A stretch of DNA of 64,000 bases, taken from the IMG/VR virus record IMGVR_UViG_3300047554_000447, positions 1 through 64,000 of that record; one strand, written 5' to 3'. The notes beneath the pieces were generated by a model that made no database searches, was not told the origin of the DNA, and saw only the letters and a list, made by a program, of their open reading frames with translations. Source of the DNA: a virus. The position numbers and the translations under genes are program-made. Shown here one piece after another: positions 1,336 through 27,897 of the stretch (the stretch's first letter is position 1; each line of letters starts with the position of its first letter).

Positions 1336-1360
1336 TAGGTGCTTCGGCACCTATTTTTTT
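1334..1360 (+). terminator. Rho-independent terminator
   Basis: AATAGGTGC-TTCG-GCACCTATT perfect stem with a UUCG tetraloop, then a T run. Confidence 0.9.
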
Positions 1361-1387
1361 GACCTAAAAATTTAAATGCTATATAAT
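1359..1387 (+). promoter_or_regulatory. sigma70-type promoter
   Basis: TTGACC-N17-TATAAT just upstream of the ATG at 1393. Confidence 0.75.
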
Positions 1388-1392
1388 AAGCC

Positions 1393-1926
1393 ATGACTAA
1401 ATTTTCTCAAAGCCCAGAAAGAATGACCTTCCAAAAAGAAGGCTATGTTAAGCGACAGGAAGAAAGAGGCGAGCCAGTAAACGAAGAGTATCTTGATTAT
1501 TTTGAAAAGGTGATCAATCAGCATGATCACAGGTTTGATGACCCAGCGTCGCGAGTGCGGAATCTTGAGTGGGATCTCCTAACCACAGAATGGATTTTAG
1601 AAAAGGTTCGAGCTAGCGAAACCTATGCTCAGAATTTATATGCGGCTATGTGTAACAACGACTTTACCAAGCGTGAAATGTGGCCTATTCTCAAAGAAGA
1701 AAAATGGTCATGCTCATGGCGCTATGCTGGTGGTATTGTTGCAGACATGCGGCAAGAGGGTGACTACATTGATTATTATTGCTCAGGTATCCGCGGTGGT
1801 GATTTTCCTGATTCAATTGATGTACCGTACGAACAGAAAAAATTTGTTCCTGAGTCGGTAGTTACTGAAGAGATTGAAGCTGATCTATACAAATTAGGTT
1901 GGATAGTTATTAAGGATGAAGAATGA
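1393..1926 (+). CDS. Conserved phage hypothetical protein
   Basis: 177 aa ORF with YAQNLYAAMCNN and WSCSWRYAGG motifs; no family recognised. Confidence 0.75.
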   Translation: MTKFSQSPERMTFQKEGYVKRQEERGEPVNEEYLDYFEKVINQHDHRFDDPASRVRNLEWDLLTTEWILEKVRASETYAQNLYAAMCNNDFTKREMWPILKEEKWSCSWRYAGGIVADMRQEGDYIDYYCSGIRGGDFPDSIDVPYEQKKFVPESVVTEEIEADLYKLGWIVIKDEE

Positions 1927-2303
1927 CACAGTTAAAAGGATATGTTGAAAAGGGTTGGGGATACGAATTAATTTTCGCATCTACTGACAAATACTGCGGT
2001 AAGCTCATGTGCTTTACTAAACCAGGTGCAAAATTCAGTATGCATTTTCACAGAGAAAAAGATGAAACATGGTTTGTGAACGCTGGTCAGTTTATGTTAA
2101 GATATATTGATACACAGACTGCCGAGCTAAAAGAGCTACTATTAAAAGAAGGTGATGTGTGGCATAACCCTCCCCTACAGCCGCATCAAGTTGAAGCACT
2201 TCAACCAAACTCTATAATCTTTGAAGTAAGCACAGCAGATTCAGTAGAAGATAACTACAGGATCGCACCAGGCGACAGCCAAAAGAAAAAGGAAGAGAAA
2301 TGA
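1923..2303 (+). CDS. Cupin-fold protein (sugar isomerase-like)
   Basis: KGWGYE, SMHFHREKDETW, PHQ and EVST cupin motifs. Confidence 0.8.
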   Translation: MTQLKGYVEKGWGYELIFASTDKYCGKLMCFTKPGAKFSMHFHREKDETWFVNAGQFMLRYIDTQTAELKELLLKEGDVWHNPPLQPHQVEALQPNSIIFEVSTADSVEDNYRIAPGDSQKKKEEK

Positions 2304-2902
2304 AGAGAATTTTCTTTACCGGAGTACCCGGAAGTCGTTGGAGTGGTATAGCACAGATCATTGAAGATAATGTGCCAGGATTTAATACCACTGATAGAGA
2401 TGCAGAAAAAGAATATTCTCATCATGCATTTACTGGCCACAAAGGTGCATACTTTGGTACAGGTATGGAGTTTGAGGCGTACTTAGATAATCCAGAGTAC
2501 TTAGATCGGCCTTGGAAGGAACCGGGCGGAACTAGGTTGATCAAGAGCCACGACTGGGCCACCATGCTAGACCAGATTCAAGAAAAATATCCCGATGACT
2601 CTATCATGTTAGTATATCGTCCTGATATGACTAGTTACGCATGGTGGCACGAAGCTGGCGGCTTTCAAATCAAATATCCAGACTATCGTGCTTACAAGGA
2701 CAGCACTACAATGTTAGCTCACATCATGGAACAGAACAAGTGCATCTTAAAATTTGCTAGAAAGCATAATGCAGTATGGCATCACTTTGGTCGTGATTTT
2801 GTCTATAAATATTTCAATGTAAAAATTGAGGAAGTTGATAATCGATACGAAGATTGTCTAGTTTCTATTATAGGAAATCATGCAAGTAATACTGTTAACT
2901 GA
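2300..2902 (+). CDS. Sulfotransferase-fold-like P-loop protein, paralogue 1
   Basis: IFFTGVPGSRWS, LIKSH and MLVYRPD are placed like the 5'-PSB, catalytic His and 3'-PB motifs; similar to 8672 and 9990. Confidence 0.55.
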   Translation: MKRIFFTGVPGSRWSGIAQIIEDNVPGFNTTDRDAEKEYSHHAFTGHKGAYFGTGMEFEAYLDNPEYLDRPWKEPGGTRLIKSHDWATMLDQIQEKYPDDSIMLVYRPDMTSYAWWHEAGGFQIKYPDYRAYKDSTTMLAHIMEQNKCILKFARKHNAVWHHFGRDFVYKYFNVKIEEVDNRYEDCLVSIIGNHASNTVN

Positions 2903-4301
2903 TGTTACATTACCGGGCTATCTAAAATATGCAGGACCTTTTCGAATTGCTTCAGAATTAAGATCCAATGGGTTTACAGTCCAAATAATCGATTATGCTA
3001 CCCAGTGGTCAACTACAGAATTAAAAAATATTCTCAGAGACTATATCTCTGATCAAACCTTGTGGGTAGGATTTACTACCACTTTTAATTCTCCTTCGAT
3101 TAGTAGAATTAACAGGATGACCAAATCGGTGGATGTAAATAAAAACATTTACGTACATTATCTAGGTAGAAATGATATTCCGGAAATTCTAGATTTTATA
3201 AAAACTATTAATCCTAAAACAAAAATTGTTGCAGGCGGGCATCAAGCAGATAAATTTAGCCTAGAAAAAATGATTGATCACGTAGTGATAGGACAAGGAG
3301 AAACAGCCGCAGTTCATCTAACTAAATCATTGCTAGATAATCAGAAAGTAGAAAAATATCTTAACGAAAGTAAATTTCCTTATAATAATTTTATTTCCAG
3401 TACTATCGAATATGTTCCAGAAGATATAATCTTTCCTGGCGAGCACCTATCCATAGAATTTTCTCGAGGCTGTACTTTCAAATGTAGTTTTTGCAATTAT
3501 CCGTTGATCGGTCGAGATCTATGGGATTTTTGTAAACCGCCGACATTAATAGCTAGCGAAATACAAAGGAACTACGATCTTTTTAAAACACAAGGGTATC
3601 TTGTCACAGACGATACCATAAACGACAGCGAAGAAAAAATTGAACAGTTACACAAAGAAATAACTAAACTTCCGTTCTCGCTAACATTGTCCTCTTATGC
3701 CAGGCTAGATCTTCTCATAGCAAAGCCAAGAACTTTAGACCTACTATATGAAATGGGATTTAGAAATTTCTTTTTTGGAATAGAAACATTTAATCACGAC
3801 GCTGGAAAAGCTATCGGTAAAGGAATGCATCCTGATAAACTCAAAGCAGGTCTGGAAGATATTAAACGTAGATATCCTGATTTTTTAATCAGTGCAGGTA
3901 TTATATTTGGCTTACCCTATGAATCTCGAGACAGCATGTTGAATACTATAGAATATCTCAAATCTTCCCCTATTGATAATGTTTCGATAGCACCTTACGG
4001 AGTGACACGAACAAGCACTATCGGATCGAATCCAGAAAAATATCAATTTAAAGTTAACGGAAATTTAGACTGGACCAGCGCATGGACTACATCTGCAGAA
4101 GTAATCGATCTAGCTAAACAAGCAGATCAAATCCTCAGACCAAAGAACAAGGCAAACTGGACTTTTTTAAGTCGCCTCATGAACCTCGGCTACAGCTACC
4201 AGTACCTAGGAAATACTCCACTAACAGATATAATCTTCGATGCTGAAGAGCGAAAAGAAACATTAAGAATTCAGTACTACAAAAAAATTAGAAAATCTTA
4301 A
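2880..4301 (+). CDS. B12-binding radical SAM protein
   Basis: SRGCTFKCSFC (CxxxCxxC), N-terminal GGH and GQGE B12-domain motifs, DD, GIET. Confidence 0.85.
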   Translation: MQVILLTDVTLPGYLKYAGPFRIASELRSNGFTVQIIDYATQWSTTELKNILRDYISDQTLWVGFTTTFNSPSISRINRMTKSVDVNKNIYVHYLGRNDIPEILDFIKTINPKTKIVAGGHQADKFSLEKMIDHVVIGQGETAAVHLTKSLLDNQKVEKYLNESKFPYNNFISSTIEYVPEDIIFPGEHLSIEFSRGCTFKCSFCNYPLIGRDLWDFCKPPTLIASEIQRNYDLFKTQGYLVTDDTINDSEEKIEQLHKEITKLPFSLTLSSYARLDLLIAKPRTLDLLYEMGFRNFFFGIETFNHDAGKAIGKGMHPDKLKAGLEDIKRRYPDFLISAGIIFGLPYESRDSMLNTIEYLKSSPIDNVSIAPYGVTRTSTIGSNPEKYQFKVNGNLDWTSAWTTSAEVIDLAKQADQILRPKNKANWTFLSRLMNLGYSYQYLGNTPLTDIIFDAEERKETLRIQYYKKIRKS

Positions 4302-5035
4302 AGTTTTTTGTATTCAAAATACAATCTATCGTTGTTGTCTTTCTTAAAAGTTTCAAGATGCAGATTGTAGGTTTTAGAGAACTCATGAGCAATTTCAAAA
4401 CTCCAGGGAAATATATCAACGTAAGGTCCGTTGGGCCACAGTATTCCGGGGTTGGCTCTAAAGTACATTTTGCCGCCGGGCATTAAAATTTCAACAAGTC
4501 GCTTGAATCTAGTTTCAATGTCTTGTTTACTGTTGAAATTTAAACTGCCAAACACAATAATATGATCAAAACTTTCTGGGTCTACCTTAAATTCTAAAAT
4601 GTCAACCATGTAGTCTGCACAGTTATTGTAAGGATCAATTCCCACAAGATTTTCGATGCGGCCTTTAAACGGATTATATCCACAGCCGAAGTCTAGTACA
4701 GCCTTAGGTTTTTCTTTATTGATAGCATCTACTAAAGCCCATCCGCTGTACTGATAAACTTCAGTGGTGGGTTTCCAAATTTCTCCAAAGAACCTATTTA
4801 GGTATCGTTTATCTAAACGATCAACAACCTCTTCAACGGTTCCTTTTAAATCTATGCTGTCGAATTGTAATTCTTCTTTAATACGATCTTCAAACTTTTG
4901 AAATCTTGCAGGTGTCCAGGGCAGAAAGTCAATCCTGGTATTTTCGCAAAGAGTTTCTCTAATTGAATCATACTTGGGTAAACTAAAAGCAGATTCTAAA
5001 TTTTCATGGATTAACTTAAAAATTCTGGTATTCAT
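4298..5035 (-). CDS. Class I SAM methyltransferase with an N-terminal ACP-like helical extension
   Basis: VLDFGCG, GID, FDHI and LMPGG motifs; start moved to the ATG at 5035 (MNTRIF), which has a GAGG RBS. Confidence 0.75.
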   Translation of the reverse strand: MNTRIFKLIHENLESAFSLPKYDSIRETLCENTRIDFLPWTPARFQKFEDRIKEELQFDSIDLKGTVEEVVDRLDKRYLNRFFGEIWKPTTEVYQYSGWALVDAINKEKPKAVLDFGCGYNPFKGRIENLVGIDPYNNCADYMVDILEFKVDPESFDHIIVFGSLNFNSKQDIETRFKRLVEILMPGGKMYFRANPGILWPNGPYVDIFPWSFEIAHEFSKTYNLHLETFKKDNNDRLYFEYKKL

Positions 5036-5142
5036 ACAAAATTTCCTCTTTATGGTAAATATTTTTGTGATTGAGAAAAAATCTCCGTTTCTGAGAAATT
5101 TTTTATCACACAAGCATATATAGTTATCAAGGAGAAAAATAT

Positions 5143-6201
5143 ATGAAAAAAATCTTGGCTGCGGCCTTACTGTATGTTGGATTCGCTACTGCACATGCAG
5201 ATTACACATTAATTGTTCCGCAGGAGCCTGGAAAAGGTACTAGCGTATGGGCGGAAATCGTTGCAAGAAATTTGAGCAAGTATACAGATGAACCAGTAGT
5301 AGTTCGTCATATTCCGGGTGCTAGAGACATTCCAGGATTTAACGAGTTTCATAATAAACTAAGAAACGATCCAAAGACTATTATGGTTGCTCACGGCGGA
5401 AATGGTGTTAGCTTCTTGCTTGATAAAGTTGATTATGATTACCGCCAATATGACAGCATTGGAATGATGAACTTAGATATCGTAGTAGGGAAAAACAAAG
5501 ACATTGACGATAAAACAGGAACCTTTAAAGTTGCTGGTGGTTCGGGACTTGAACCCGACGGTATGGCCATGGCTATGATGGCCTGTGGACCACAGCCTAG
5601 CACCGATGCGTACCTAGCATGTTTTAAGAAACGTATCGTATGGGTCAACGGTGTTAAAGGCAACGAAAGACGCTTAGGATTCATGAGGGGTGAATTTAAC
5701 ACTACTAGAGAATCTGCCGCGGCATGGATCAAGCACTACACAGGTGAAAAAGCAGATCCAAAGAACATTATTTGGTTCACACATGGTATCTACGATTTAT
5801 CAAAGAAAAAACAAATCGCCGACCCTAACTTCCCTAACACACAATTTGAAGAACAGTACAAGTCAGTGTGGGGTGAGTATCCGAAAGGAGAATTGTATGA
5901 AGCGTATCGACTCACACGTAACTGGCGTGACGTTATTCAAAAATCTCTTTGGGTAAACAAAGGTAATCCTAACACAGAAAAACTTCGCTCTGCTCTTAGA
6001 AAGATGATCACAGACCCTGAGGCAGTAGCCGCTCTAGAAAAAGACACAGGAAAATATCCTTGGATCATCGGTAACGACGGTAACAAGGTCATCGGAGAGT
6101 TAGAAAAGCTCATCACTAAAAAGTCACTAGAAACAGCAGTAAAGTGGAATCAAGAAGCCTACGGATTCCCTTCTGTGTTTAAACCAGAATTGTTAAAATA
6201 A
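5143..6201 (+). CDS. tctC: TctC/Bug-family tripartite tricarboxylate transporter substrate-binding protein
   Basis: Signal peptide ending AHA; LIVPQEPGKGT and VVVRHIPGA resemble the Bug N-terminal motifs; adjacent to TctA. Confidence 0.75.
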   Translation: MKKILAAALLYVGFATAHADYTLIVPQEPGKGTSVWAEIVARNLSKYTDEPVVVRHIPGARDIPGFNEFHNKLRNDPKTIMVAHGGNGVSFLLDKVDYDYRQYDSIGMMNLDIVVGKNKDIDDKTGTFKVAGGSGLEPDGMAMAMMACGPQPSTDAYLACFKKRIVWVNGVKGNERRLGFMRGEFNTTRESAAAWIKHYTGEKADPKNIIWFTHGIYDLSKKKQIADPNFPNTQFEEQYKSVWGEYPKGELYEAYRLTRNWRDVIQKSLWVNKGNPNTEKLRSALRKMITDPEAVAALEKDTGKYPWIIGNDGNKVIGELEKLITKKSLETAVKWNQEAYGFPSVFKPELLK

Positions 6202-6204
6202 TAA

Positions 6205-7644
6205 ATGGAATATTTTGTCTGGATCCTACTAGGAAGCCTTTATGGACTCCTAGTAGGAGTTATTCCGATAGCTGGTGTTACCACAGCCCTAATCACTGTC
6301 TTTAGTTTTGGATCTTATTTTTTAGCAGATCCTTATCTAGGTATCGTGTTTTTGACCAGCATCATAGCGGCCTGTGCTAGTGCTGATAGTTACACTTCTA
6401 TCCTTACCGGAATACCTGGCGCATCAACTACTGCGGCCTGTGTGATAGATGGTTACCCAATGACTAAAAACGGCGAGGCTGGGAGAGCTATGGGTATTGC
6501 CATTTTTGACAGTACCTTTAGCGGAGTATTCTACGGTATCCTAGCCTTTACACTTTTACCGTTTTACGGAAAAATAATATTGTTATTTGGCATACCGGAA
6601 TTTGCAGGATTCATGTTTTTATCGTTGGCCTGTGTGGGATTCGTTACCAGCAAGAATCCTTATAAAAGTGTATTAGCTATTGCTATTGGATTATTCATAG
6701 GATTAATCGGACAAGAGCCCAGCACCGGAGCACCTAGGTTTATCTTTGGTTGGGATTATCTAGAAGCAGGTGTACAAATAATTCCTTTGATATCAGGCCT
6801 GTTCGGTCTTCCAGAATTAATCTTTGGATTCAAAGGCATGCGGTCTCAGACCGTGACCTTGGACAACTACTGGCAACAACTACGTGTTGGGATGAAAGAC
6901 TGTATAACAAATTGGAAAGACATGTTTCGGGGAGGAGTCATTGGTTTCGCCACTGGTCTGTTACCCGGAGTCGGCGGTGCTGTCGGAGATTTTCTTGCAT
7001 ACGGCGCGACCAAAGCTAAACACCCTAATGAAGAATTTGGCAACGGAAATCCCAAAGGCCTATTAGGTTGTGAAGGGGCAAATAATGCACAGAAAGTTTC
7101 AAGTCTAATACCTACTGTGCTATTTGGGATTCCGGCCGCGCCCTTTGCGGCTATAATGATGGCCATCTGTATGTATTTTGGTATTGAGTTAGGTAGTCCC
7201 GAACTAGTATCTGATTCTAAATTTGCGTGGAGTTTAGTTTTAGGATTTGTTGGCGGAACCATACTAGTGGCTATTTTTAGTATATTCTTGATGAAGTTTA
7301 TAATCAAACTTCTAAGTGTACCGTATTGGATCTATGCTTCAGTTATCATCGCTATCATAATATATGCGAATATGGAGTACACAGGCACTTGGCGAGATTT
7401 AGCTATATTAGGTATTTGCTCTTTGTTAGGTATTATGTTAAAATACTTTGATATCAGCAGGCCTGCCGTACTAGTAACCTTTGTGATCGCTGAGAGATTA
7501 GAAAGCTATACAAAACAGACTATGCAACTCTACGATCTAGGAGATCTACTCACTCGTCCTATTTTTGTAGTATGTATTATAGTAGCCTTCTATATCATTT
7601 ACAGAAGTATTAGACATAAAAATCTAGGGATTAATTATACTTGA
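6205..7644 (+). CDS. tctA: TctA tripartite tricarboxylate transporter large permease
   Basis: Polytopic membrane protein with GIPG..DGYPM, GLLPGVG, EGANNA and LFGIP signatures. Confidence 0.9.
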   Translation: MEYFVWILLGSLYGLLVGVIPIAGVTTALITVFSFGSYFLADPYLGIVFLTSIIAACASADSYTSILTGIPGASTTAACVIDGYPMTKNGEAGRAMGIAIFDSTFSGVFYGILAFTLLPFYGKIILLFGIPEFAGFMFLSLACVGFVTSKNPYKSVLAIAIGLFIGLIGQEPSTGAPRFIFGWDYLEAGVQIIPLISGLFGLPELIFGFKGMRSQTVTLDNYWQQLRVGMKDCITNWKDMFRGGVIGFATGLLPGVGGAVGDFLAYGATKAKHPNEEFGNGNPKGLLGCEGANNAQKVSSLIPTVLFGIPAAPFAAIMMAICMYFGIELGSPELVSDSKFAWSLVLGFVGGTILVAIFSIFLMKFIIKLLSVPYWIYASVIIAIIIYANMEYTGTWRDLAILGICSLLGIMLKYFDISRPAVLVTFVIAERLESYTKQTMQLYDLGDLLTRPIFVVCIIVAFYIIYRSIRHKNLGINYT

Positions 7645-7997
7645 TAGAATTATTACTTACTAACATTATCTATGTTTCCTATAGGCTCATAGTCAGTGGA
7701 CCCATAGTAAAAATCCTAAACAACTACTTGCCGTACTATGCGGCAGTATTTGTTATGGCTCAACTAAGTTTTGCCTACGACACTTTCGTATTTGGTCACT
7801 ATTTTAATGCGCAAGAGTTGCCTGATATATTCAACTATATAAAGTCGGATATACTTTACACTTTACGAGTACTTGCCGCCTGGTGGTTAATCAAACGCAT
7901 ATGGGATCTAGTTAAGAACTATTGGCTATCTGTTTTCATTGGTGCTGAAATAACCTTCGTCTGTGATTATTTTATCTTCAGAGATTTATTTCATTAA
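7641..7997 (+). CDS. Small membrane protein (possible TctB substitute)
   Basis: Hydrophobic 118 aa ORF overlapping the tctA stop; TTG start. Confidence 0.55.
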   Translation: MIELLLTNIIYVSYRLIVSGPIVKILNNYLPYYAAVFVMAQLSFAYDTFVFGHYFNAQELPDIFNYIKSDILYTLRVLAAWWLIKRIWDLVKNYWLSVFIGAEITFVCDYFIFRDLFH

Positions 7998-8021
7998 ATA
8001 TCTGTCTAACAGAGGTTATAC

Positions 8022-8675
8022 ATGGAAAGTAATTGGGATATACAACGAGCAAAATCTAAGTACCATTTTGACAACACCATAATAGATCCTAACTGGGATA
8101 AAGTCCAACATTTAGGTTCTTTTAGTGGAGATTGGTCTAAGGAAGTAGCTGAAGCGATTGAAACTGCTAGACCCGCTACTTGGAGGAATAGGTCAAAGAC
8201 TGGTGCGCCAAACAAGCTCGTTGATGCCGAGGAGTATGATTTAATCAATGCTGGTGCCGATCCTAATATGGTATTTTCAAATCTCGAATACAACCTAGCA
8301 CCAGTATTTCAAAAAATCACTGATTTCTTTGGTCTCTTCAACGAAGAAAGTAGGGTTCATGTACAATGGCCTGGACAGGTTTTTATTAAACATATAGATA
8401 AATTAGAAAAGTTTTATCCTAGCGATCCCAACAGAGTGATCAGAATAATGATCATGCTCACAGACTGGGATCAGGGTCATTACAACCAATATGGTAATTT
8501 TGTTTACCAACAATGGAGAGCCGGAGAAGCTCATACCTTTGACTGGCAAAATGTTCCGCATAGTTCGGCAAACTCGGGATTGACTCCTAGAGTCAGCTTA
8601 CTAGTCACTGGTGTCAAAACAGAGAGAACTGAACAGGCTTTAATCGAACTTAAAAATAACAAAATTATTGTATGA
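8022..8675 (+). CDS. Fe(II)/2OG-oxygenase-like (double-stranded beta-helix) protein, paralogue 1
   Basis: QWPGQ..HID, distal PHSSAN and R.SL; similar to 10685. Confidence 0.65.
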   Translation: MESNWDIQRAKSKYHFDNTIIDPNWDKVQHLGSFSGDWSKEVAEAIETARPATWRNRSKTGAPNKLVDAEEYDLINAGADPNMVFSNLEYNLAPVFQKITDFFGLFNEESRVHVQWPGQVFIKHIDKLEKFYPSDPNRVIRIMIMLTDWDQGHYNQYGNFVYQQWRAGEAHTFDWQNVPHSSANSGLTPRVSLLVTGVKTERTEQALIELKNNKIIV

Positions 8676-9373
8676 TCGACGAAAGTAAAATTATTTTTTA
8701 TACAGGTGTTCCTGGTTCTAAATGGAGTGCGTTTGCTCATGTGCTAACTCACACACCGTATCTGAATATCAATACCTCTGATTACGACGAGTCTAAGACC
8801 TATACTCACTACGACACTGGATTCTCAGGCATCAGCCATCAAGGAGCGTACTGGGGACAAGGCAACGGCATAGGCGAAAGATTTCACGAAATAGATAAAC
8901 TTTCGAAACAAGAAATTATCGACGAGATTGAAAAGCCCTATAAAGATAAAAATTGGGATCAATATAGAATCATTAAGTGTCATCAATTTGCTCTAAATCT
9001 CAACTACATTAAAAACACTTTTCCAAAAAGTAAAATACTTGTTGTGATGAGAGATGACAGTATTAGTTATTGGTCATGGATGAAAGCTGGGGGATTTGAA
9101 AAGATTACCTATCCGAATTACAGTGAATACTATAAAGATCCGGATACGATAAAAGCAAAGATTCTAGAGGAAAACTATTATACTAGAAAGTTTGTACAAG
9201 AAAACAATCTCAAGATAGATGTTGTTAGAGAACAGTATTTTAGAGATAGATGGGGAGTTACTAAAGCTAACGATGAGCTGACTAACTATATCAGTTCTTT
9301 AGAAGGTCGCCCAGACAAAGAGATAAATTTTAGATATACACTAGACATCACTGTAAGCGAGTATAATTTTTAA
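8672..9373 (+). CDS. Sulfotransferase-fold-like P-loop protein, paralogue 2
   Basis: IFYTGVPGSKWS, IIKCH, FPKSKILVVMRD. Confidence 0.55.
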   Translation: MIDESKIIFYTGVPGSKWSAFAHVLTHTPYLNINTSDYDESKTYTHYDTGFSGISHQGAYWGQGNGIGERFHEIDKLSKQEIIDEIEKPYKDKNWDQYRIIKCHQFALNLNYIKNTFPKSKILVVMRDDSISYWSWMKAGGFEKITYPNYSEYYKDPDTIKAKILEENYYTRKFVQENNLKIDVVREQYFRDRWGVTKANDELTNYISSLEGRPDKEINFRYTLDITVSEYNF

Positions 9374-9993
9374 TGTCAATTTTAAATACTAACCTAGCAG
9401 ATAAATTCAATCCGAGTTCGTGGGCAGGATGGAAAGCCTGGAAACACTACAAGCACACCGGATTTAATCTCATCGATGAAGTAAATGCTTTGGACCCTGA
9501 CCTAGTCATTGATGTTGGATGTGGTCATAATCGTTTCAAGGGACATATTAAAAACATCATCGGTTTTGATCAAGAACCTTTTCCCTTTGTTGATATCGTA
9601 GCTAACATAGAAGATATTAATTTTAGACTCGAATCGGCAGATGCAGTTCTAGCCCTAGGTAGTATTCAATTCGGTACTAGAGAGTTAGTCCAAAAACACT
9701 TTACTAAAGTTGTAAGTTGGGTCAAACCTGGCGGATATATTGTAATGAGGACCATGAGAGATTCTGTTTCTTCATATCATCATCAAGAATCTCACTACAT
9801 CTGGACCGACGACGATATTATTAATATCGGCAATGATCACAGCCTAGAGATTATCAAAGGTCCATTTGTTGAAGAAGTGTTGGATGCGTTTAATGAAGTT
9901 AGAAGTACACGCATGGCATGGTGGTATAAAAAACCGGGCGAGCTAAAAAAATATAAAATTGATCCGTATAACTGTAAAGTAGAACAGCGATGA
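9373..9993 (+). CDS. Class I SAM methyltransferase, paralogue of 4298-5035
   Basis: VIDVGCGHNRFKG, GFD, VKPGG. Confidence 0.8.
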   Translation: MSILNTNLADKFNPSSWAGWKAWKHYKHTGFNLIDEVNALDPDLVIDVGCGHNRFKGHIKNIIGFDQEPFPFVDIVANIEDINFRLESADAVLALGSIQFGTRELVQKHFTKVVSWVKPGGYIVMRTMRDSVSSYHHQESHYIWTDDDIINIGNDHSLEIIKGPFVEEVLDAFNEVRSTRMAWWYKKPGELKKYKIDPYNCKVEQR

Positions 9994-10685
9994 TTATTAA
10001 TGATTTAAAATTTCATTTCGTAGCAGGATGCCCTGGTTCAGCATGGAGCATGATCAGCCAGCGATTCAAGAGAGCATTTAAAGATAAGTTTGACAACTCA
10101 GATGAAGTTGGACAAAGAAGTTATAACTTACCTGAAGAACATAAATCACAATATACTGTGATCGCAGAAAACTGGCAGGCAACTACACATAAAGGCATGT
10201 ACTTTGGTCCTTATCACGAGTACGGTGAGGATTTTGATGATCTTAGAAAATATTCTTCCGTTGATGATTTTTACAAAGAGTGCCTAAAGCCCTATAAAGA
10301 TGTTCTTGCCCCTTATAAGTTAATCAAAAGTCACTGGTTTTCATATAACTTAGATTGGCTATGGGATAACTGTAAAGGACATTCTATCATGCTAGTATGG
10401 AGAGATTCCGTACAAGCAGAAGACTGGTGGTATAAGATGGGAGGCTGGAGCATTGACTATCCTATCTACACTTGGTATGAAAACACAGAAAGAATGCGAC
10501 AACAAATCGAAGAAGAAAATAAACTAATTATGGAATTTGGAACAAGAAAAAATGTTCAATGGTATGACTATGATCACGACGGTGTATGGTTAGAAAAGAG
10601 GTTTAACATACCTCCATTGTCAAAACCTCAGGCATATCCTAATTTCGTTGATGCACCTAAAGTAGCTATAATGGATATCGTATAA
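9990..10685 (+). CDS. Sulfotransferase-fold-like P-loop protein, paralogue 3
   Basis: FVAGCPGSAWS, LIKSH, MLVWRDS, GGWSIDYP. Confidence 0.55.
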   Translation: MIINDLKFHFVAGCPGSAWSMISQRFKRAFKDKFDNSDEVGQRSYNLPEEHKSQYTVIAENWQATTHKGMYFGPYHEYGEDFDDLRKYSSVDDFYKECLKPYKDVLAPYKLIKSHWFSYNLDWLWDNCKGHSIMLVWRDSVQAEDWWYKMGGWSIDYPIYTWYENTERMRQQIEEENKLIMEFGTRKNVQWYDYDHDGVWLEKRFNIPPLSKPQAYPNFVDAPKVAIMDIV

Positions 10686-11665
10686 TGAGTAAAAATCTAA
10701 TAAGAATTATACCCCACGATGAATGGGTTGAGAAGCAAAGAGATTTAACCATTCGACAAGCAGAGTGGGAAAAGGCTCGTGACAAGTGGATGGAGTTTCA
10801 GGGGCCACCTCCAGGACCACCACCGAGAAATTGGAATGATCCCGAGACAGGTAAACCTAGTCGTTGGTTACAAGCTAAGAGCTTTAGTAATTACGACGAA
10901 ACTAGATTTGGTCCTGATCCTATCGACAGCGTCATTGATAGACTAGGTATCTTTGAAGGTCTAGACTTTGCACCGGATATCAAATATGGTGAAGAAGGAA
11001 ACTTTGGAGCCACTACACTAATTGATCGTACTGGGACCCCAGAGTACAGAGATGAGATGAGCAGTCACTATCCTATTACTATGGTTAATGATGCTGAAAA
11101 GATCGGCATCGACTTAGATAACTTTCCTATGTTTGACGGTGCTCTAGTAGAGGACCGATCATCTTGTAGAAGGATTTCAGACTTCATTGGCCTAGATTAT
11201 GAAACTGCAAACGCCGGTGCTCGTCGAGACTACGGATATGAGAGCTTTCATATGCAACGTCCTGGTCAAATGCTGATGTATCATCATGATCTTTACTATG
11301 CCGTAATACGTGACGTAGATATGGAACTTGCATGGAAACCAGAGAAACTTAGAAGATTCGTAATCTTCATGGAAGACTGGATTCCGGGGCATATCTGGAT
11401 CGCAGGAAATTCTACTTATAGTCATTGGCGCAAGGGAGAATGCATTAGTTGGAACTGGCAGGACATGCCGCACGGTACTGCTAATCTAAGTCCAAAGACT
11501 AGATACAGCGTACACCTAACTGGTTACATGACAGAGTCTAGTTGGGAATTTTATAATCGTGGAAATAAAGATATGCGGTATCGCCCTAATGCGATTGGAG
11601 GCTTTGATGCGTATCAAGTTAAAGAAGATGGCTCTGAAGAGTTAATTTACGCAAAAGGAAAGTAA
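10685..11665 (+). CDS. Fe(II)/2OG-oxygenase-like protein, paralogue 2, with an N-terminal extension
   Basis: QRPGQ..HHD, WQDMPHGTAN, RYS. Confidence 0.65.
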   Translation: MSKNLIRIIPHDEWVEKQRDLTIRQAEWEKARDKWMEFQGPPPGPPPRNWNDPETGKPSRWLQAKSFSNYDETRFGPDPIDSVIDRLGIFEGLDFAPDIKYGEEGNFGATTLIDRTGTPEYRDEMSSHYPITMVNDAEKIGIDLDNFPMFDGALVEDRSSCRRISDFIGLDYETANAGARRDYGYESFHMQRPGQMLMYHHDLYYAVIRDVDMELAWKPEKLRRFVIFMEDWIPGHIWIAGNSTYSHWRKGECISWNWQDMPHGTANLSPKTRYSVHLTGYMTESSWEFYNRGNKDMRYRPNAIGGFDAYQVKEDGSEELIYAKGK

Positions 11666-11666
11666 T

Positions 11667-12227
11667 ATGAGATTACATTTATTCTTAGGATCAGTTGGTG
11701 CAAACTTTTTAAAAGTTTCAGAAAAGATCCAGCCTTTGCTAATAGAAAAAAATAATTCATCAGAAAAACACATTGAAATTAAATTCGGTGGTTATGGAAA
11801 CTGGGATGAAACAAAGGCCTATAACTATGATGGCTGGAATAAAAGATTAAAGAAATTTATTCACAATAATCCCTCAGTCGAGGATGTTATTATTCTAGGC
11901 CCTGGCGCATTGTTAAATGCTAAACGATTTATTGAAGACTATCAAGATGTTAGTCTTTATTTCTTAGAAAAGAATACAGATCTAATTTCACCTGAAGAGT
12001 TATTAGAAAACTTTTATCAAAAATTTCAAGACAGTATAAATGCAGATAAAACTGCTTGGTTGAATTTTATTGATAAAACTAACACTATCTACAATGAATT
12101 AAAGACTCAGTATCAGCCTTCGATGACACTCTTTGGGGGATTCTTGTTAGAGGAAAACAGTATAAATTTAAATCTCGAGCTTAAACAAGAATATATGAAA
12201 ATAGGTCTTGTTAAATTAAATGCTTGA
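11667..12227 (+). CDS. Hypothetical protein
   Basis: 186 aa ORF tightly coupled to the upstream gene; no family recognised. Confidence 0.6.
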   Translation: MRLHLFLGSVGANFLKVSEKIQPLLIEKNNSSEKHIEIKFGGYGNWDETKAYNYDGWNKRLKKFIHNNPSVEDVIILGPGALLNAKRFIEDYQDVSLYFLEKNTDLISPEELLENFYQKFQDSINADKTAWLNFIDKTNTIYNELKTQYQPSMTLFGGFLLEENSINLNLELKQEYMKIGLVKLNA

Positions 12228-13005
12228 AATTTTCGTTTAGTTTAGAATTAAGATATGATTCAATCGATCTAATATCTAACCTAGCCCAAGTAAGTGACAA
12301 TGAATTACTTACTGGGCTATTTTTTTTGGCGTCCAAATCTGCTAGTTCTAGTTTAATATCTGTAAGATATTCTTGATCATAGATAGGATTATAAAAAAAT
12401 TCATTATGCTTTTGGAAGCACCATAAATCTCTTATAGAAGGTTTTAGATTTTTTGTTTCTACGTCTTTAATTAATTTTGAAAAATTGGATAGATAACTAC
12501 TCGGTTTAATATCCGTGTTTTCTATCTTTGCAGGAAACAGCGAGGTTGTTTGAAAATATCTTAAAGCAACGCTATCAACATCGTCGTCTATTAAATTTAT
12601 AATCTTACTGTTAGGAAATCGAGATCGAATGTTTTTAGGAGCGTCATGCACCACCCATGTTAGAAAATGATGTTCTAAAATCTGGTCAGCGTTAACCGAC
12701 TGCATGAGCTTAGGCCATACAACAGAGTAATAATAATCTACGTCATCCTCTGACCAATATTTTTCAACCCTTTCTCCAACTAATGGGACAACGCCAAGGG
12801 GTAATAATCTATCATAATGATATTGACTAATGTCTTTACCTTTAATAATGTTGTTACGTTCAGCATCCCAAGGATGTATTCCGTTATTAGCATGCGAATA
12901 CCAGTAGACGTTTTCTGCACATGATACTATCCTGCCAAGCCGATGTCCGCCGTTGCCAGCACTGGCACAGATAAACAGTAAACGATCACTGTTTTTATAA
13001 TCCAT
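12211..13005 (-). CDS. Hypothetical protein, possibly a divergent sulfotransferase fold
   Basis: LLFICASAGNGGH N-terminal loop, VVH, RFPNSKIINL. Confidence 0.5.
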   Translation of the reverse strand: MDYKNSDRLLFICASAGNGGHRLGRIVSCAENVYWYSHANNGIHPWDAERNNIIKGKDISQYHYDRLLPLGVVPLVGERVEKYWSEDDVDYYYSVVWPKLMQSVNADQILEHHFLTWVVHDAPKNIRSRFPNSKIINLIDDDVDSVALRYFQTTSLFPAKIENTDIKPSSYLSNFSKLIKDVETKNLKPSIRDLWCFQKHNEFFYNPIYDQEYLTDIKLELADLDAKKNSPVSNSLSLTWARLDIRSIESYLNSKLNENFKHLI

Positions 13006-13576
13006 GCCTATCCTTAAATTCTGTTCTTAGTTTAAAATACATATCAAGATCGAGTTCCCAGACTGACTGCTCAGTATAGAACAACATCATTTTATCGACT
13101 AGCTTAGTAACAAGACCTTGCCTTTCTAAAAGATTAAACACCCTATGGCTTTTCTCCATAGAGGATATACTGTTAGTCCAATTGGTAGTGATTACAAACC
13201 TCTTGTATCCTACTTCTTGCCCGTATTTGATTTGTAAAGGAACGTGATAAAAGAATGGGATAGATCCCATGTGTGTTTTGCTCATTATTCCATGATAGTT
13301 TTTATACTGCGGAAGTTCTGCACCTCTAAACAGTATCCTATAGACATCTGAACCTACTTCTTTTAAGGGATGGCAACCACTAACTGAAATTATTTCATTT
13401 TCTAATCTGCTGGTATAAAATGCGCCGCCGAGATCTAAACACCAATCTAATTTCATGCTTTGTAGACTACGATTGTTAGCATAACCTGCAAGATCACAAG
13501 AACTACAAAATTTTAATAAATCTTCTTTTTGAGATCTATCGTAGATTGTTGTTATTAACCTTTTTTCGGCGCCCAT
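12995..13576 (-). CDS. Hypothetical protein, possibly GNAT-like
   Basis: ENEIISVSG..RILFRG pattern; overlaps both neighbours in a minus-strand operon. Confidence 0.45.
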   Translation of the reverse strand: MGAEKRLITTIYDRSQKEDLLKFCSSCDLAGYANNRSLQSMKLDWCLDLGGAFYTSRLENEIISVSGCHPLKEVGSDVYRILFRGAELPQYKNYHGIMSKTHMGSIPFFYHVPLQIKYGQEVGYKRFVITTNWTNSISSMEKSHRVFNLLERQGLVTKLVDKMMLFYTEQSVWELDLDMYFKLRTEFKDRHGL

Positions 13577-14286
13577 AGATCAATATCCTTGTTAGTCCTT
13601 CCTTGATAAAACATAAAATCATCTTTCATAACTACCAGGTCTTTAGTTGGATACCAGCCATTAAAAATTGATAAGTCACCTCTAACTATTAGCTCGTTAT
13701 TAACTATCTTCCAGTCACACCAGAATGTATTACCTAATAAGGTAGAATCAGGTGGTGAAATATTTTTGATCGCTTTTACCTGTGCTAGACTAGTAAACAC
13801 AGTATTAATGGCTATAGGCCCAACTTCGCTCATACCCCAGTTAGTCATAAAAGTTGCTCCTCGGTCAACAAAGGCTTCTATGATATCCCAGGTCACAGGG
13901 TCAGCACCGCAGGTGACCCACACACCAGACAAATCTAAAGTTTTAAAACCTTTGGTCAACATTATTGCTTTGGCGTGTAGCGGAGTGATGTGGGTATGGG
14001 TGTATTTTTTAATCTTTTTTACAAACTCGTAGGCATTAAATGGTTCTATGTCAACATGAGCACCAATGCTTAACGCTGGTAAAGTTTGAGCTAACAATCC
14101 GCCGGCATGAGTTATTTTACAGCAGGTATATATTCTACTCTGTTTGGTAATGTGCTGGGCTTGTAAAGCTATCTGATTGGCGAATATCAACTTATCAGTT
14201 GTTTGATAAAAATCATTAGGCTTACCGCTAGTTCCAGAACTAGAAATGATTACACCTTCTTTGAGTATTTTTTGATAATTTATCAT
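13555..14286 (-). CDS. Truncated AMP-binding (adenylate-forming) enzyme
   Basis: A3 SSSGTSGKP, HAGG, A5 WGMSEVG, A7 WYPTKD and A8 GR; only 243 aa. Confidence 0.8.
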   Translation of the reverse strand: MINYQKILKEGVIISSSGTSGKPNDFYQTTDKLIFANQIALQAQHITKQSRIYTCCKITHAGGLLAQTLPALSIGAHVDIEPFNAYEFVKKIKKYTHTHITPLHAKAIMLTKGFKTLDLSGVWVTCGADPVTWDIIEAFVDRGATFMTNWGMSEVGPIAINTVFTSLAQVKAIKNISPPDSTLLGNTFWCDWKIVNNELIVRGDLSIFNGWYPTKDLVVMKDDFMFYQGRTNKDIDLWAPKKG

Positions 14287-14325
14287 TGAATATTTAATTT
14301 AAGAAACCATGTTCATCAAAGGTTC

Positions 14326-14354
14326 TTGACTAACAAGGATACATACTGTAGAAT
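14326..14354 (+). promoter_or_regulatory. sigma70-type promoter
   Basis: TTGACT-N17-TAGAAT. Confidence 0.55.
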
Positions 14355-14383
14355 TATAGCATCTTTAAAGTAAATATACTACT

Positions 14384-14554
14384 ATGAAAACTACATATTT
14401 GGCTGAAGAAATTTTTGAAGAAATTCCAGGCGACCCAGACAATGTCATTATGAAATTGCCCCCGGAGCTCTGTGAACAAATGGGTTGGAAGGAAGGAGAT
14501 ACTCTAGATATCACTGTTGAAGATGGTGCTATATCTATCAAGAAACATGGCTAA
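14384..14554 (+). CDS. AbrB/MazE (SpoVT)-like swapped-hairpin protein (56 aa)
   Basis: MKTTYLAEEIFEEIPGDPDNVIMKLPPELCEQMGWKEGDTLDITVEDGAISIKKHG; the LP.E....GW..GD pattern is typical of the AbrB fold; not in the ORF track. Confidence 0.7.
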   Translation: MKTTYLAEEIFEEIPGDPDNVIMKLPPELCEQMGWKEGDTLDITVEDGAISIKKHG

Positions 14555-14768
14555 AAATTCAGAACTCTTAGAACTCATAGGCATCGTCACAGATGTATTG
14601 CCCAACTCTACTTTTAGAGTAAAGGTAGAACAAACAGAACATCAACTGCTTTGTTATATGGGCGGCAAATTAAAACAGCATAAGATTAAAATCATCCTGG
14701 GTGATAAAGTAAAAATGGAAGTTAGTCCTTACGATCTGACTAAAGGGCGAATCGTTTTTAGGTTGTAA
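14547..14768 (+). CDS. infA: Translation initiation factor IF-1
   Basis: LPNSTFRV, GK, IKIILGDKV, SPYDLTKGRIVFR; start at ATG 14547. Confidence 0.95.
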   Translation: MAKNSELLELIGIVTDVLPNSTFRVKVEQTEHQLLCYMGGKLKQHKIKIILGDKVKMEVSPYDLTKGRIVFRL

Positions 14769-26701: not shown

Positions 26702-27897
26702 AAGTAAAAATATTTGTAGAAGAAGGCGATCGAGTTCCGTATGTGAACGGATTTAAAAAAGAAATCGCTGAAAAAATTATCATACCTCAGTATTATCCCG
26801 AAGGATTTTTTGGTCTATACGGCCCTCCATTCTTTAGAACATACGAACCTGTAAATGCTATTCCCGAAGATAAATTCTATTATCCAATAATTGTTAGTTT
26901 ATGGTTGATCATTGATAATATTGAGCACCTCGAAATACCAACTGAAATTATTTCTTGTATTAAATCTCAACAGGCAAAGATATTATTAGTAAATCCATTT
27001 GAGGGTTGGGAGTGGAGTTACTGGGAATCTCTAGTAGAGAAAATCGCAGATAAATTTAATTTATCATCAGACGATTTTGTCTGCCTAACAGGCAATCACT
27101 CTCCTCTAACTAATTTAAAATCTATCGTGTTTAATTTTTGGGAGTTTGGTTATCAATATAATCTCTTAGAAGAACATAGATTAAAATTTATCGAATCAGT
27201 TAAGAATCTAGACGCTAAACCTTATAAGTTTATCTGTCTAAATCGCAGGCCTCATTTTCACAGACTGGCTCTAGTACAGATGTTGTTTGATATCAAAGAT
27301 CAAGGAATCCTAACCTGTGCAAAACAAGGAGCAATCGCACCCGAATATTTTACTATGCATCTTAATAGATTGCAAAAATACGACGAAGGAATACATGATC
27401 GATTCGTTAAAAATATACTTCCAGTATTGCCGTTGACCGTCGACGACGGCATTGATGTTGAGATAGAAAATCCTGCACTGGATACTAAGTATGATAAATT
27501 TTTCGATAGTTATATTCATATAGTAACAGAAACATTTTTTGAACAACTCAATAATAGAATGTTTTTCAGTGAAAAGGCTTTTAAGCCGATGGCTATGTTA
27601 CAGCCATTTGTGTTTGTTGGTCAACGTCACTCATTAAAAACTCTCAGAGACTTAGGATACAAAACATTTCAACCATATATAGATGAAAGCTACGATGAAA
27701 TCGTCGATGACCACGACCGTATGCAGGCTGTGGTAAAAGAGATAAAAAGATTAACGGCTCTTGAACATGATCAGCTATGGGTACTAATACAGCGTATTCG
27801 CCCTATTATTGAACATAATTTTCTGCACATTTATACTAGAGCTGATATTATCAAAGAACAATTAAAATCTGAATTAATTAAAGGATTAGAAAAATGA
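26698..27897 (+). CDS. Putative glycosyltransferase-like protein (GT-B-type C-terminus)
   Basis: FICLNRR..HR, IVTET, FSEK..KP, GYKTF...DESYD; adjacent to ugd. Confidence 0.5.
   Translation: MKVKIFVEEGDRVPYVNGFKKEIAEKIIIPQYYPEGFFGLYGPPFFRTYEPVNAIPEDKFYYPIIVSLWLIIDNIEHLEIPTEIISCIKSQQAKILLVNPFEGWEWSYWESLVEKIADKFNLSSDDFVCLTGNHSPLTNLKSIVFNFWEFGYQYNLLEEHRLKFIESVKNLDAKPYKFICLNRRPHFHRLALVQMLFDIKDQGILTCAKQGAIAPEYFTMHLNRLQKYDEGIHDRFVKNILPVLPLTVDDGIDVEIENPALDTKYDKFFDSYIHIVTETFFEQLNNRMFFSEKAFKPMAMLQPFVFVGQRHSLKTLRDLGYKTFQPYIDESYDEIVDDHDRMQAVVKEIKRLTALEHDQLWVLIQRIRPIIEHNFLHIYTRADIIKEQLKSELIKGLEK

Follow-up and report, generated by a model that had tools for sequence, protein, structure and literature searches.

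The closest described counterparts of the locus examined here, a phage-encoded island of about 12 kb that combines transporter and enzyme genes, come from several settings. In bacteria, its uptake components correspond to the tripartite tricarboxylate transporter (TTT; TctCBA) and to the TctC-type Bug binding proteins, which also occur as orphan genes in Bordetella and other Burkholderiales. In cyanophages, pstS provides a phage-supplied periplasmic binding protein that boosts host uptake. Sulfotransferases that use 3'-phosphoadenosine-5'-phosphosulfate (PAPS) hold their donor through a 5'-phosphosulfate loop with a conserved lysine or arginine and through separate 3'-phosphate-binding residues, and Nod-factor tailoring combines a sulfotransferase (NodH) with PAPS synthesis (NodPQ) and a methyltransferase (NodS). 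To our knowledge, phage auxiliary genes are known mostly as single enzymes or single binding proteins. The island lies at positions 1923-14286 of the window, by which we mean the whole 64,000-nucleotide stretch that was analysed, the first 64 kb of IMG/VR record IMGVR_UViG_3300047554_000447 (86,348 bases; CheckV completeness 24%).

Parts of the island have been listed in viruses before. A tctA gene appears among the putative auxiliary metabolic genes (AMGs) of SUP05 viruses, marked as a 'protein domain hit only' (PMC4164917), and again in a review table of viral AMGs (PMC6359870); where these two sources treat the gene, its role is stated as unknown and no linked enzymes are described. A sulfotransferase is listed among viral AMGs as well (PMC8290583), and 2-oxoglutarate (2OG) oxygenase genes are reported to be common in cyanophages (PMC4164917). 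Like the latter, the oxygenases of the island are phage-borne, but they differ in forming a family that lacks a Pfam match, is absent by tblastn from 50,697 GenBank phage records and has fixed partners. As with phage pstS, the virus supplies a periplasmic binding protein; unlike in the earlier tctA listings, full-length transporter genes are accompanied by a conserved set of three enzymes, in hundreds of contigs. Full-text searches of a literature collection with few subscription journals gave no description of a TTT-linked enzyme module in phages. The components belong to known superfamilies; the novelty lies in a binding protein that is conservedly paired with three enzymes, and in two enzyme families for which no models exist.

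We propose that a giant phage of fresh water carries, in these 12 kb, a hypervariable island for auxiliary metabolism that is built from separable modules, and we give even chances to the reading that its central genes form an uptake-and-tailoring module, which would import an organic anion and then hydroxylate, sulfate and methylate it in the cytoplasm. The tight coupling of genes that had been predicted is plain from the layout: 16 open reading frames (ORFs) with overlapping or near-abutting ends fill the interval, in strand runs of plus (1923-4301), minus (4298-5113, a single gene), plus (5143-12227) and minus (12211-14286), and divergent transcription resumes past 14286. The ORFs are as follows.

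1923-2303, plus: small cupin, 126 aa (PF07883, 1.3e-7)
2300-2902, plus: GPGS1, sulfotransferase-fold paralog with loop GVPGSRWS, assigned by paralogy to GPGS2
2880-4301, plus: B12-binding radical S-adenosylmethionine (SAM) enzyme (PF04055 and PF02310)
4298-5113, minus: MT1, class I SAM methyltransferase (weak Pfam matches, motif DxGCG)
5143-6201, plus: SBP1, divergent TctC-type periplasmic binding protein (related by profile and structure)
6205-7644, plus: TctA, large membrane subunit of the tripartite tricarboxylate transporter (PF01970)
7641-7997, plus: 118-aa protein with four hydrophobic peaks, which resembles TctB in its position only
8022-8675, plus: HxD1, 2OG/Fe(II) oxygenase (H124-x-D126...H180, R190)
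8672-9373, plus: GPGS2, sulfotransferase-fold paralog with loop GVPGSKWS, the modelled copy
9373-9993, plus: MT2, class I SAM methyltransferase (Methyltransf_11 above cut-off)
9990-10685, plus: GPGS3, sulfotransferase-fold paralog with loop GCPGSAWS, no basic loop residue
10685-11665, plus: HxD2, oxygenase paralog with a proline-rich N-terminal extension (28% identity to HxD1)
11667-12227, plus: unknown protein, 186 aa, no significant family match; homologue in 1 of 80 loci
12211-13005, minus: o12211, unknown 264-aa protein with a P-loop-like N-terminus; cassette member 1
12995-13576, minus: GNAT-like protein, weak support (PDB 3t9y, E 0.001); cassette member 2
13555-14286, minus: mini adenylate-forming enzyme, 243 aa, central ANL core only (PF00501, 1.2e-11); cassette member 3

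A mosaic island with a conserved core

The linkage of these genes was counted in a census anchored on the oxygenase family (HxD), for which there are 436 confirmed viral IMG/VR loci; the best 80 were kept, homologues were called by tblastn at E ≤ 1e-5 and counted within 10 kb of HxD, and the set includes near-identical groups (L028-31, L064/68, L076/77 and others). Relatives of the three GxPGSxWS ('GPGS') proteins are present at 66 of the 80 loci and methyltransferases at 63, and a binding protein is found at 68 when SBP1 (30 loci) is counted together with SBP2, a second form carried by related phages. TctA occurs at 26 loci, always together with SBP1, and a further 38 of the 80 have a canonical PF03401 binding protein and no TctA. 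The other families are rarer: o12211 is present at 13 loci, the GNAT-like protein and the mini adenylating enzyme at 12 each, the small membrane protein at 6, and the cupin and the B12-radical SAM enzyme at none. The gene order met most often is MT(-), SBP, GPGS, HxD (in 10 of the 14 loci listed). When scored against the HxD strand, binding proteins and TctA lie on the same strand in every scored locus and GPGS in 76 of 81, at fixed positions. A search with TctA as the query gave 11 viral loci, six of which repeat MT, TctA, TctC, GPGS and HxD, and unsupervised clustering of 1,710 ORFs from 89 sources placed the same families on top (HxD in 84 sources, GPGS 69, MT 67, SBP2 38, SBP1 35 and TctA 34, with the next family in 19). 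Dozens of viral contigs repeat these sets of genes in an unchanged order, so that the association is more than chance, and the conserved core is a TctC-type binding protein, a 2OG/Fe(II) oxygenase, a GPGS protein and a SAM methyltransferase.

The original prediction of a biosynthetic-like island built around a TTT transporter is partly supported as a whole. Co-occurrence in IMG/VR links GPGS, HxD and MT to TTT components, and the core genes are neither shuffled among phages independently of the transporter nor copied from a characterised bacterial operon, the nearest bacterial operons sharing only GPGS and MT, at 31-41% identity, with different partners. The component to which the core is tied, however, is the binding protein; TctA itself is present at a minority of loci and always with the divergent SBP1.

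Nor is the island one fixed pathway. In two 99-kb viral contigs of a related phage (L011 and L012) the same site holds a TctA that is only 30% identical, an oxidoreductase of the NMO/FMN type, a longer AMP-binding protein of 313 aa and two radical SAM proteins with an N-terminal SPASM domain. L028-31 have no TTT genes. The flanking phosphoesterase is 90-96% identical in these relatives, whose islands differ, and its retention marks a conserved left flank. The arrays of close relatives hold up to four HxD, three GPGS and three MT genes. A closely similar flank beside different contents indicates a hypervariable site, in which optional cassettes are slotted in beside a conserved core, and the 12 kb are a mosaic of modules: the core is linked as predicted, but the cupin and radical SAM genes do not travel with it and the adenylating cassette forms a separate unit, at 12-13 of the 80 loci.

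Such a site might be nothing more than a recombination hot spot that gathers unrelated accessory genes, and both the very different contents found beside a phosphoesterase that is 90-96% identical (L011/L012, L028-31) and the complete absence of the cupin and radical SAM genes from the census fit that explanation. It does not account for four core families that keep order and strand across dozens of loci, for the existence of GPGS-MT and o12211-o12995 fusions, or for the retention of the GPGS-MT pair in bacteria too, and we consider a lack of any joint function very improbable.

At L050:5867-9151 and in its relatives, a group of genes that we identified by eye only is inserted between MT and GPGS; it comprises ferritin-like, glutamine-amidotransferase-like and cupin genes and two further P-loop proteins, and the amidotransferase-like family is present in 15 of the 89 sources.

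Uptake components and enzyme families

TctA is complete, as predicted (PF01970, 1.1e-93, profile positions 2-422 of 423), has 12 hydrophobic segments, and matches only seven records among the GenBank phages, at 25-32% identity. SBP2 (for instance L046:8410-9375) is a canonical TctC (PF03401, 6.4e-25) that sits exactly between MT and GPGS in the loci without TTT permease genes. SBP1 had been called TctC from the sequence, and a relation to this family is partly confirmed by profile and by structure: it aligns to the PF03401-bearing SBP2 over 107 columns, in the N-terminal lobe only (hhalign 96.9%, E 1.6e-10), and an Atlas structure search matches it to a bacterial TctC cluster with a TM score of 0.80. 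A profile search of the PDB with SBP1 returned only three sequences (E 0.015-0.94), whose titles name only BugD and all of which we take to be Bug/TctC-type binding proteins. Both SBP1 and SBP2 have signal-peptide-like N-termini. The viral Atlas clusters of SBP1 have 602, 230 and 93 members and are 99-100% viral, and a further structural match has 168 members, 94% of them viral. A loop that usually reads GG(S/T)xD in TctC and Bug proteins is PGKGTS in SBP1 and PGAGNE in SBP2, which suggests that the ligand may be no ordinary carboxylate.

The phage system therefore shares with bacterial TTT systems a complete TctA and secreted TctC-type binding proteins, and its many loci with a binding protein but no permease recall the orphan Bug genes. 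It differs in being phage-encoded, in the divergence of SBP1 beyond the reach of the Pfam model, in having no identifiable TctB, and in lying always inside an enzyme operon. The 118-aa product of 7641-7997, proposed as a small membrane protein, does show four hydrophobic peaks, but no segment passes a stricter cut-off and no Pfam model matches at E ≤ 10; its homologues, at six viral loci and in L013, stand always directly before HxD, and two of these seven sources lack TctA.

The two HxD..H oxygenases of the original prediction are paralogs (28% identity over 227 residues) whose assignment is borne out by structure. The HxD1 model has a predicted local distance difference test (pLDDT) score of 94, and all 50 of its listed VIA structure matches are 2OG/Fe(II) oxygenases with the double-stranded beta-helix fold (Z 8.3-11.9); Foldseek gives 309 matches at E ≤ 0.001. 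H124, D126, H180 and R190 are invariant in 28 sequences, and R190 probably binds the C5 carboxylate of 2OG. The nearest structures are hydroxylases of amino acids and proteins. The two methyltransferases are likewise paralogs (32% identity over 105 residues) with an invariant DxGCG (motif I) in their alignment. Their Pfam matches are weak, and MT2 alone passes the cut-off (Methyltransf_11, 7.8e-5, score 23.7 versus 21.2); the top PDB matches, all methyltransferases and led by a phosphoethanolamine N-methyltransferase, are weak too (E 1e-3). The TTG start listed for MT1 is probably too far upstream, because a homologue (L046:7587-8321) begins at residues encoded at the ATG at 5035; a start there would leave a 107-base divergent intergenic region before the SBP1 gene.

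The three GPGS paralogs are 29-38% identical to each other, and orthologs of GPGS1 (about 50% identity) lie beside TctA in L004, L018, L019 and L032-34. The GPGS2 model, made from a 32-sequence alignment, has a pLDDT of 95, and its top eight VIA matches are all sulfotransferases (Z 9.8-7.2), from TPST1 (Z 9.8, root-mean-square deviation 3.7 Å, 175 residues aligned) through the next at Z 9.2 to the eighth, NDST1 (Z 7.2); the best Foldseek match, TPST2, is weak (E 4e-3). The overall fold is that of PAPS sulfotransferases such as TPST1/2, mycobacterial Stf1/Stf9 and the CurM/olefin-synthase 'activating' domain (Z 9.8-7.9), with the glycine-rich loop after strand 1 in common. W18 and S19 of this loop are invariant and the Walker A lysine is absent; H104 is invariant and a lysine two residues before it is near-invariant, an arrangement that may correspond to the Lys-x-His of cytosolic sulfotransferases. 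The Actinomadura homologue bears the UniRef name 'Sulfotransferase family'. GPGS proteins differ from the known enzymes in that the window copies match no sequence model, in a loop whose basic residue is not conserved, in their length of about 200-233 aa, smaller than most, and in being fused or paired with a methyltransferase. From the modelled fold, the reaction that they catalyse would be sulfation with PAPS. Of the three or four sulfotransferase-fold proteins originally counted, three are thus confirmed as GPGS paralogs; the fourth, o12211, was rejected, its hhalign comparison with the GPGS family reaching 15% and its PDB sequence search giving no match.

Gene fusions tie GPGS to the methyltransferase. 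Six of eight long GPGS relatives (P0338, P0356, P0369, P0403, P0408 and P0448) are fusions of an N-terminal GPGS to a C-terminal MT half, as judged by blastp to both window families. The other two were set aside: P0447 (798 aa) begins as a GPGS and continues with unrelated, unannotated sequence, and P0365 has a GPGS half and no MT half. In the isolate bacteria Massilia, Janthinobacterium and Tahibacter (L015:6572-9252, L017 and L016) a sulfatase-family gene is followed by adjacent GPGS and MT genes, the operon proteins being 55-83% identical among the three genomes; in Massilia and Janthinobacterium the operon adjoins an ABC transporter and a PaaK-like ligase. The fusions and this adjacency in isolates argue that GPGS and MT act together. 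A complex prediction for GPGS2 with MT2 scored 0.01, which speaks neither for nor against such a complex. In Actinomadura vinacea (L014:2567-12220) a GPGS homologue stands among B12-radical SAM, sulfatase/phosphodiesterase-family and ADI-family genes, with a BTAD (SARP-type) regulator and a TraG-like gene; the locus could represent a biosynthetic cluster, as yet uncharacterised, that a mobile element carries.

Short contigs (1.9-6 kb) binned into metagenome-assembled genomes of Chitinophagales, Polynucleobacter, Terrimicrobiaceae and Flavobacterium (L013, L018, L020, L021) consist largely of the phage module, and Legionellales-labelled short contig material likewise carries a phage-type module. 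The former are probably pieces of phage DNA that were wrongly binned with bacteria, as the latter may be, and we left them all out of the bacterial counts.

A further neighbour speaks to the sulfate donor. In 14 of the 89 sources (for instance L003:9294-10094) a fusion of an APS (adenosine 5'-phosphosulfate) kinase and a nucleotidyltransferase lies on the HxD strand about 0.7-1.9 kb past the HxD start, adjacent to it or one to three ORFs on. Its N-terminal half matches PF01583, APS kinase, above cut-off (1.4e-10; best PDB match 2yvu, an APS kinase, 6e-6) and its C-terminal half matches NMN adenylyltransferase (1.3e-3). This architecture parallels that of PAPS synthase, which argues that the neighbouring GPGS uses PAPS, and the protein could be a PAPS synthase of an unconventional kind. 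Taken together, a sulfotransferase-type enzyme, a SAM methyltransferase and an APS-kinase-containing protein resemble the Nod set, a likeness by combination alone. The phage set differs in that its nucleotidyltransferase half is NMN-adenylyltransferase-like and not a CysD/CysN-type sulfurylase, in having no chitin-oligomer genes, and in adding a binding protein and an oxygenase.

Several observations weigh against an uptake-and-tailoring module. Twelve of the 80 loci have no detectable binding protein; at three of these HxD is near the end of the locus, four are near-identical copies of one phage type, three have other genes inserted and two are an identical pair. SBP1 has no Pfam match even at E ≤ 10 and none in NCBIfam or PHROG, and the window's HxD and GPGS proteins match no Pfam, NCBIfam or PHROG model; tblastn with HxD1 against the GenBank phage records found none. 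Among GPGS homologues, PF13469 is present on only one of 67 from the phage query and one of 84 from the bacterial query (2 of 151 listed), and the profile of GPGS picks up a compact family, only 324 of 1.84 billion cluster representatives. Searched against the PDB, the profile found no sulfotransferase, only adenylate-kinase-like proteins (E 0.28-0.36) matched via the GxPGS loop. The loop, GxPGS[K/R/A]WS, does not conserve the basic residue expected in a phosphosulfate loop, and nucleotide and P-loop kinases follow closely in the VIA list of GPGS2 (Z 7.1-5.3). The APS-kinase fusion is absent from the window. The bacterial 'sulfatase', whose best matches are choline sulfatase, arylsulfatase and PehA, reads PYTSASHAS where the nucleophile motif of choline sulfatase aligns, and not C/SxPxR, so that it may carry out phosphoryl rather than sulfuryl chemistry; a further match is to the Phosphodiest family (1.5e-4 for the Massilia protein, 2.5e-13 for that of Actinomadura). 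Finally, the top fold matches of the oxygenase and the sulfotransferase include protein-modifying enzymes (prolyl hydroxylases, TPST) that would equally fit a macromolecular target.

Several of these points would be explained if the GPGS proteins were small-molecule kinases or transferases of another group, so that the chemistry was hydroxylation, phosphorylation and methylation. Kinases and sulfotransferases share the P-loop fold, the PDB profile matches are adenylate-kinase-related, and the bacterial partner, lacking C/SxPxR, matches Phosphodiest. We nevertheless find this alternative improbable: the Walker A lysine is missing from a loop whose W18 and S19 are invariant, the top eight structural matches are sulfotransferases without exception, PF13469 is found on two homologues, and an APS-kinase fusion is the neighbour in 14 of the 89 sources.

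The bacterial pairing with an alkaline-phosphatase-superfamily hydrolase (by its choline sulfatase, arylsulfatase and PehA matches) also raises nutrient scavenging, in which the binding protein would capture an organosulfur or organophosphorus anion and the enzymes would release or reroute its sulfur or phosphorus, in analogy to phage pstS. The freshwater habitat, the weak match of the methyltransferase to phosphoethanolamine N-methyltransferase and the PhpK P-methyltransferases as the best family of the B12-radical SAM enzyme agree with this, and 2OG-dependent enzymes that cleave sulfonates and sulfate esters (TauD, AtsK) are known. On the other side, an APS kinase implies that activated sulfate is spent and not harvested, it is not obvious what a methyltransferase fused to GPGS would do in mineralisation, and the structures nearest to HxD1 hydroxylate amino acids and proteins, with no TauD or AtsK among the 50 matches listed, which decides little. 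We judge scavenging to be quite improbable.

Accessory genes and genomic setting

The remaining enzymes of the island vary in how firmly they can be assigned. The cupin (PF07883, above cut-off) and the B12-radical SAM enzyme (PF04055, 3.4e-15; PF02310, 4.9e-8; CxxxCxxC visible in the translation) are as predicted, and both are strain-specific extras, the cupin being found only in the near-identical L010. The cupin also matches the WbuC family at 1.3e-6, below cut-off. NCBIfam scores of the radical SAM enzyme are all far below their cut-offs, including the best, the PhpK family (2.1e-25), and no subfamily is assigned. The predicted adenylate-forming enzyme does match the AMP-binding family, but over profile positions 167-331 of 384 only, so that it lacks the mobile C-terminal domain and a full N-terminal domain; homologues of 223-254 aa occur at 12 loci. 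The possible GNAT has a single weak match, PDB 3t9y, over 76 residues, and no Pfam match at E ≤ 10. The o12211 and GNAT-like families are fused in L009:7878-9131 (417 aa), where the fusion gene directly follows the mini adenylating enzyme, and in L024:10664-11941 (425 aa), and these fusions tie the cassette together. By eye, o12211 seems to share a P-loop-like motif with another P-loop family, which has a length of 210 aa and occurs in 15 of the 89 sources; as that family has no Pfam match, the motif was not confirmed and was set aside.

These accessory genes bear on a further explanation, that the oxygenase, sulfotransferase-like and methyltransferase paralogs decorate a macromolecule, such as a peptide resembling ribosomally synthesized and post-translationally modified peptides (RiPPs), a protein of the virion or the host, or a glycan or lipopolysaccharide of the cell surface. 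The binding protein and transporter would then be connected with the enzymes only loosely, perhaps by supplying a precursor. The best fold matches are protein-modifying, with tyrosylprotein sulfotransferases at Z 9.8-9.1 and prolyl hydroxylases and an Asp/Asn beta-hydroxylase on the oxygenase side, and arrays of up to four HxD, three GPGS and three MT genes would suit modification at many sites. A related phage's island contains two radical SAM/SPASM enzymes, the B12-radical SAM enzyme matches a RiPP C-methyltransferase model (5.8e-8), the cupin resembles the WbuC cupins, which sit in O-antigen clusters, and a UDP-glucose dehydrogenase is encoded at 27894-29123. Sulfation, methylation and PAPS supply may also recall Nod-factor tailoring by NodH, NodS and NodPQ. 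However, the tightest partner of the enzymes is the binding protein, whose gene lies within the operon and separates MT from GPGS; among the recurrent families we saw no glycosyltransferase, no peptidase and no small ORF resembling a precursor peptide; the bacterial contexts resemble small-molecule clusters; and folds matched at Z 8-12 do not fix the class of substrate. Overall we think decoration of a macromolecule rather unlikely.

Near-identical DNA is present in freshwater or aquatic metagenomes of at least five studies besides the possible source; no RNA data set was among the sequencing runs listed as carrying it, which says nothing about expression. In one sequencing run of another study, 2580-5462 and 5435-14549 are each covered by a single contig at about 98% identity (175 differences in 9,115 bases for the latter). 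Because an independent freshwater assembly thus bridges 5435-14549 in one contig, the island is not a chimera. GC content is even across the window (35-44%), PHROG matches to DNA ligase, endonuclease, tail-fibre and virion families lie downstream of the island, no tRNAs were found in the window, and megablast of the island against GenBank phages gave no match.

To the left of the island lie the calcineurin-like phosphoesterase (PF00149, 161-766, plus) and an AAA_33 P-loop kinase (871-1335, plus). A terminator-like hairpin (1334-1355) directly precedes a sigma70-like promoter at 1359-1387 (plus; TTGACC-17-TATAAT, 11 of 12 consensus positions, a consensus match only), which is probably the start of the left transcription unit. 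Counts of sigma70-like and terminator-like elements in the region are not above those in shuffled sequence, and a candidate late-promoter motif, TATAAATA, is uninformative (4 in the window versus 6.8 expected). On the right, a 56-aa ORF (14384-14554, plus), which by eye resembles a small DNA-binding domain of the AbrB/MazE type, comes just after a sigma70-like promoter (14326-14354) and overlaps the start of a gene for a 73-aa IF-1 homologue (14547-14768, plus), whose best PDB matches are all IF-1 (E 2.6e-19 to 3.9e-15).

A possible pathway and its implications

For the uptake-and-tailoring module, we propose the following course of events. During infection, the binding protein would capture a specific small organic anion from the water, and a TTT permease would import it, namely the phage's TctA here and, where the binding protein stands alone, presumably the host's TctAB. 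The oxygenase would install a hydroxyl group on the imported anion, GPGS would sulfate the hydroxylated molecule with PAPS, and the methyltransferase, working with GPGS, would methylate the same molecule. The extra copies in this phage (three GPGS, two MT, two oxygenases) may act at further positions or on related substrates, and add-on tailoring steps would come from the cassette of mini adenylating enzyme, GNAT-like protein and o12211, from the cupin and from the B12-radical SAM enzyme. What the data show directly is the gene content, the folds, the catalytic motifs, the conservation of linkage and order, the fusions and the habitat in fresh water; we infer the direction of transport, the class of substrate, the sulfation by GPGS, the order of the steps and any benefit to the phage.

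A bolder extension, which we offer as an unlikely but consequential one, is that giant phages of fresh water have their own pathway, resembling those of secondary metabolism. They would take up a precursor with a binding protein and a permease of phage make and convert it, by hydroxylation, sulfation and methylation, into a dedicated small molecule that is active during infection. If so, the product could be, for example, a signal, an inhibitor of competitors or of host defences, or an activated intermediate with sulfate as its leaving group, and the GPGS-methyltransferase pair would be an unrecognised enzyme family of two parts that bacterial biosynthetic clusters also have.

The wider significance lies in the recurrence of a multi-gene unit, a binding protein and three enzymes in fixed order, in phages. 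At least 436 IMG/VR contigs carry its oxygenase family, about 900 almost purely viral members are gathered in three Atlas clusters of its binding protein, and curated models are lacking for all three of the module's soluble families. The module defines two enzyme families without annotation, GPGS and HxD, which have bacterial relatives in biosynthetic-looking clusters. It offers a concrete, testable case of a virus that equips its host with an uptake step as well as with the chemistry that follows, and it may reveal which dissolved organic compound matters to abundant lake phages.

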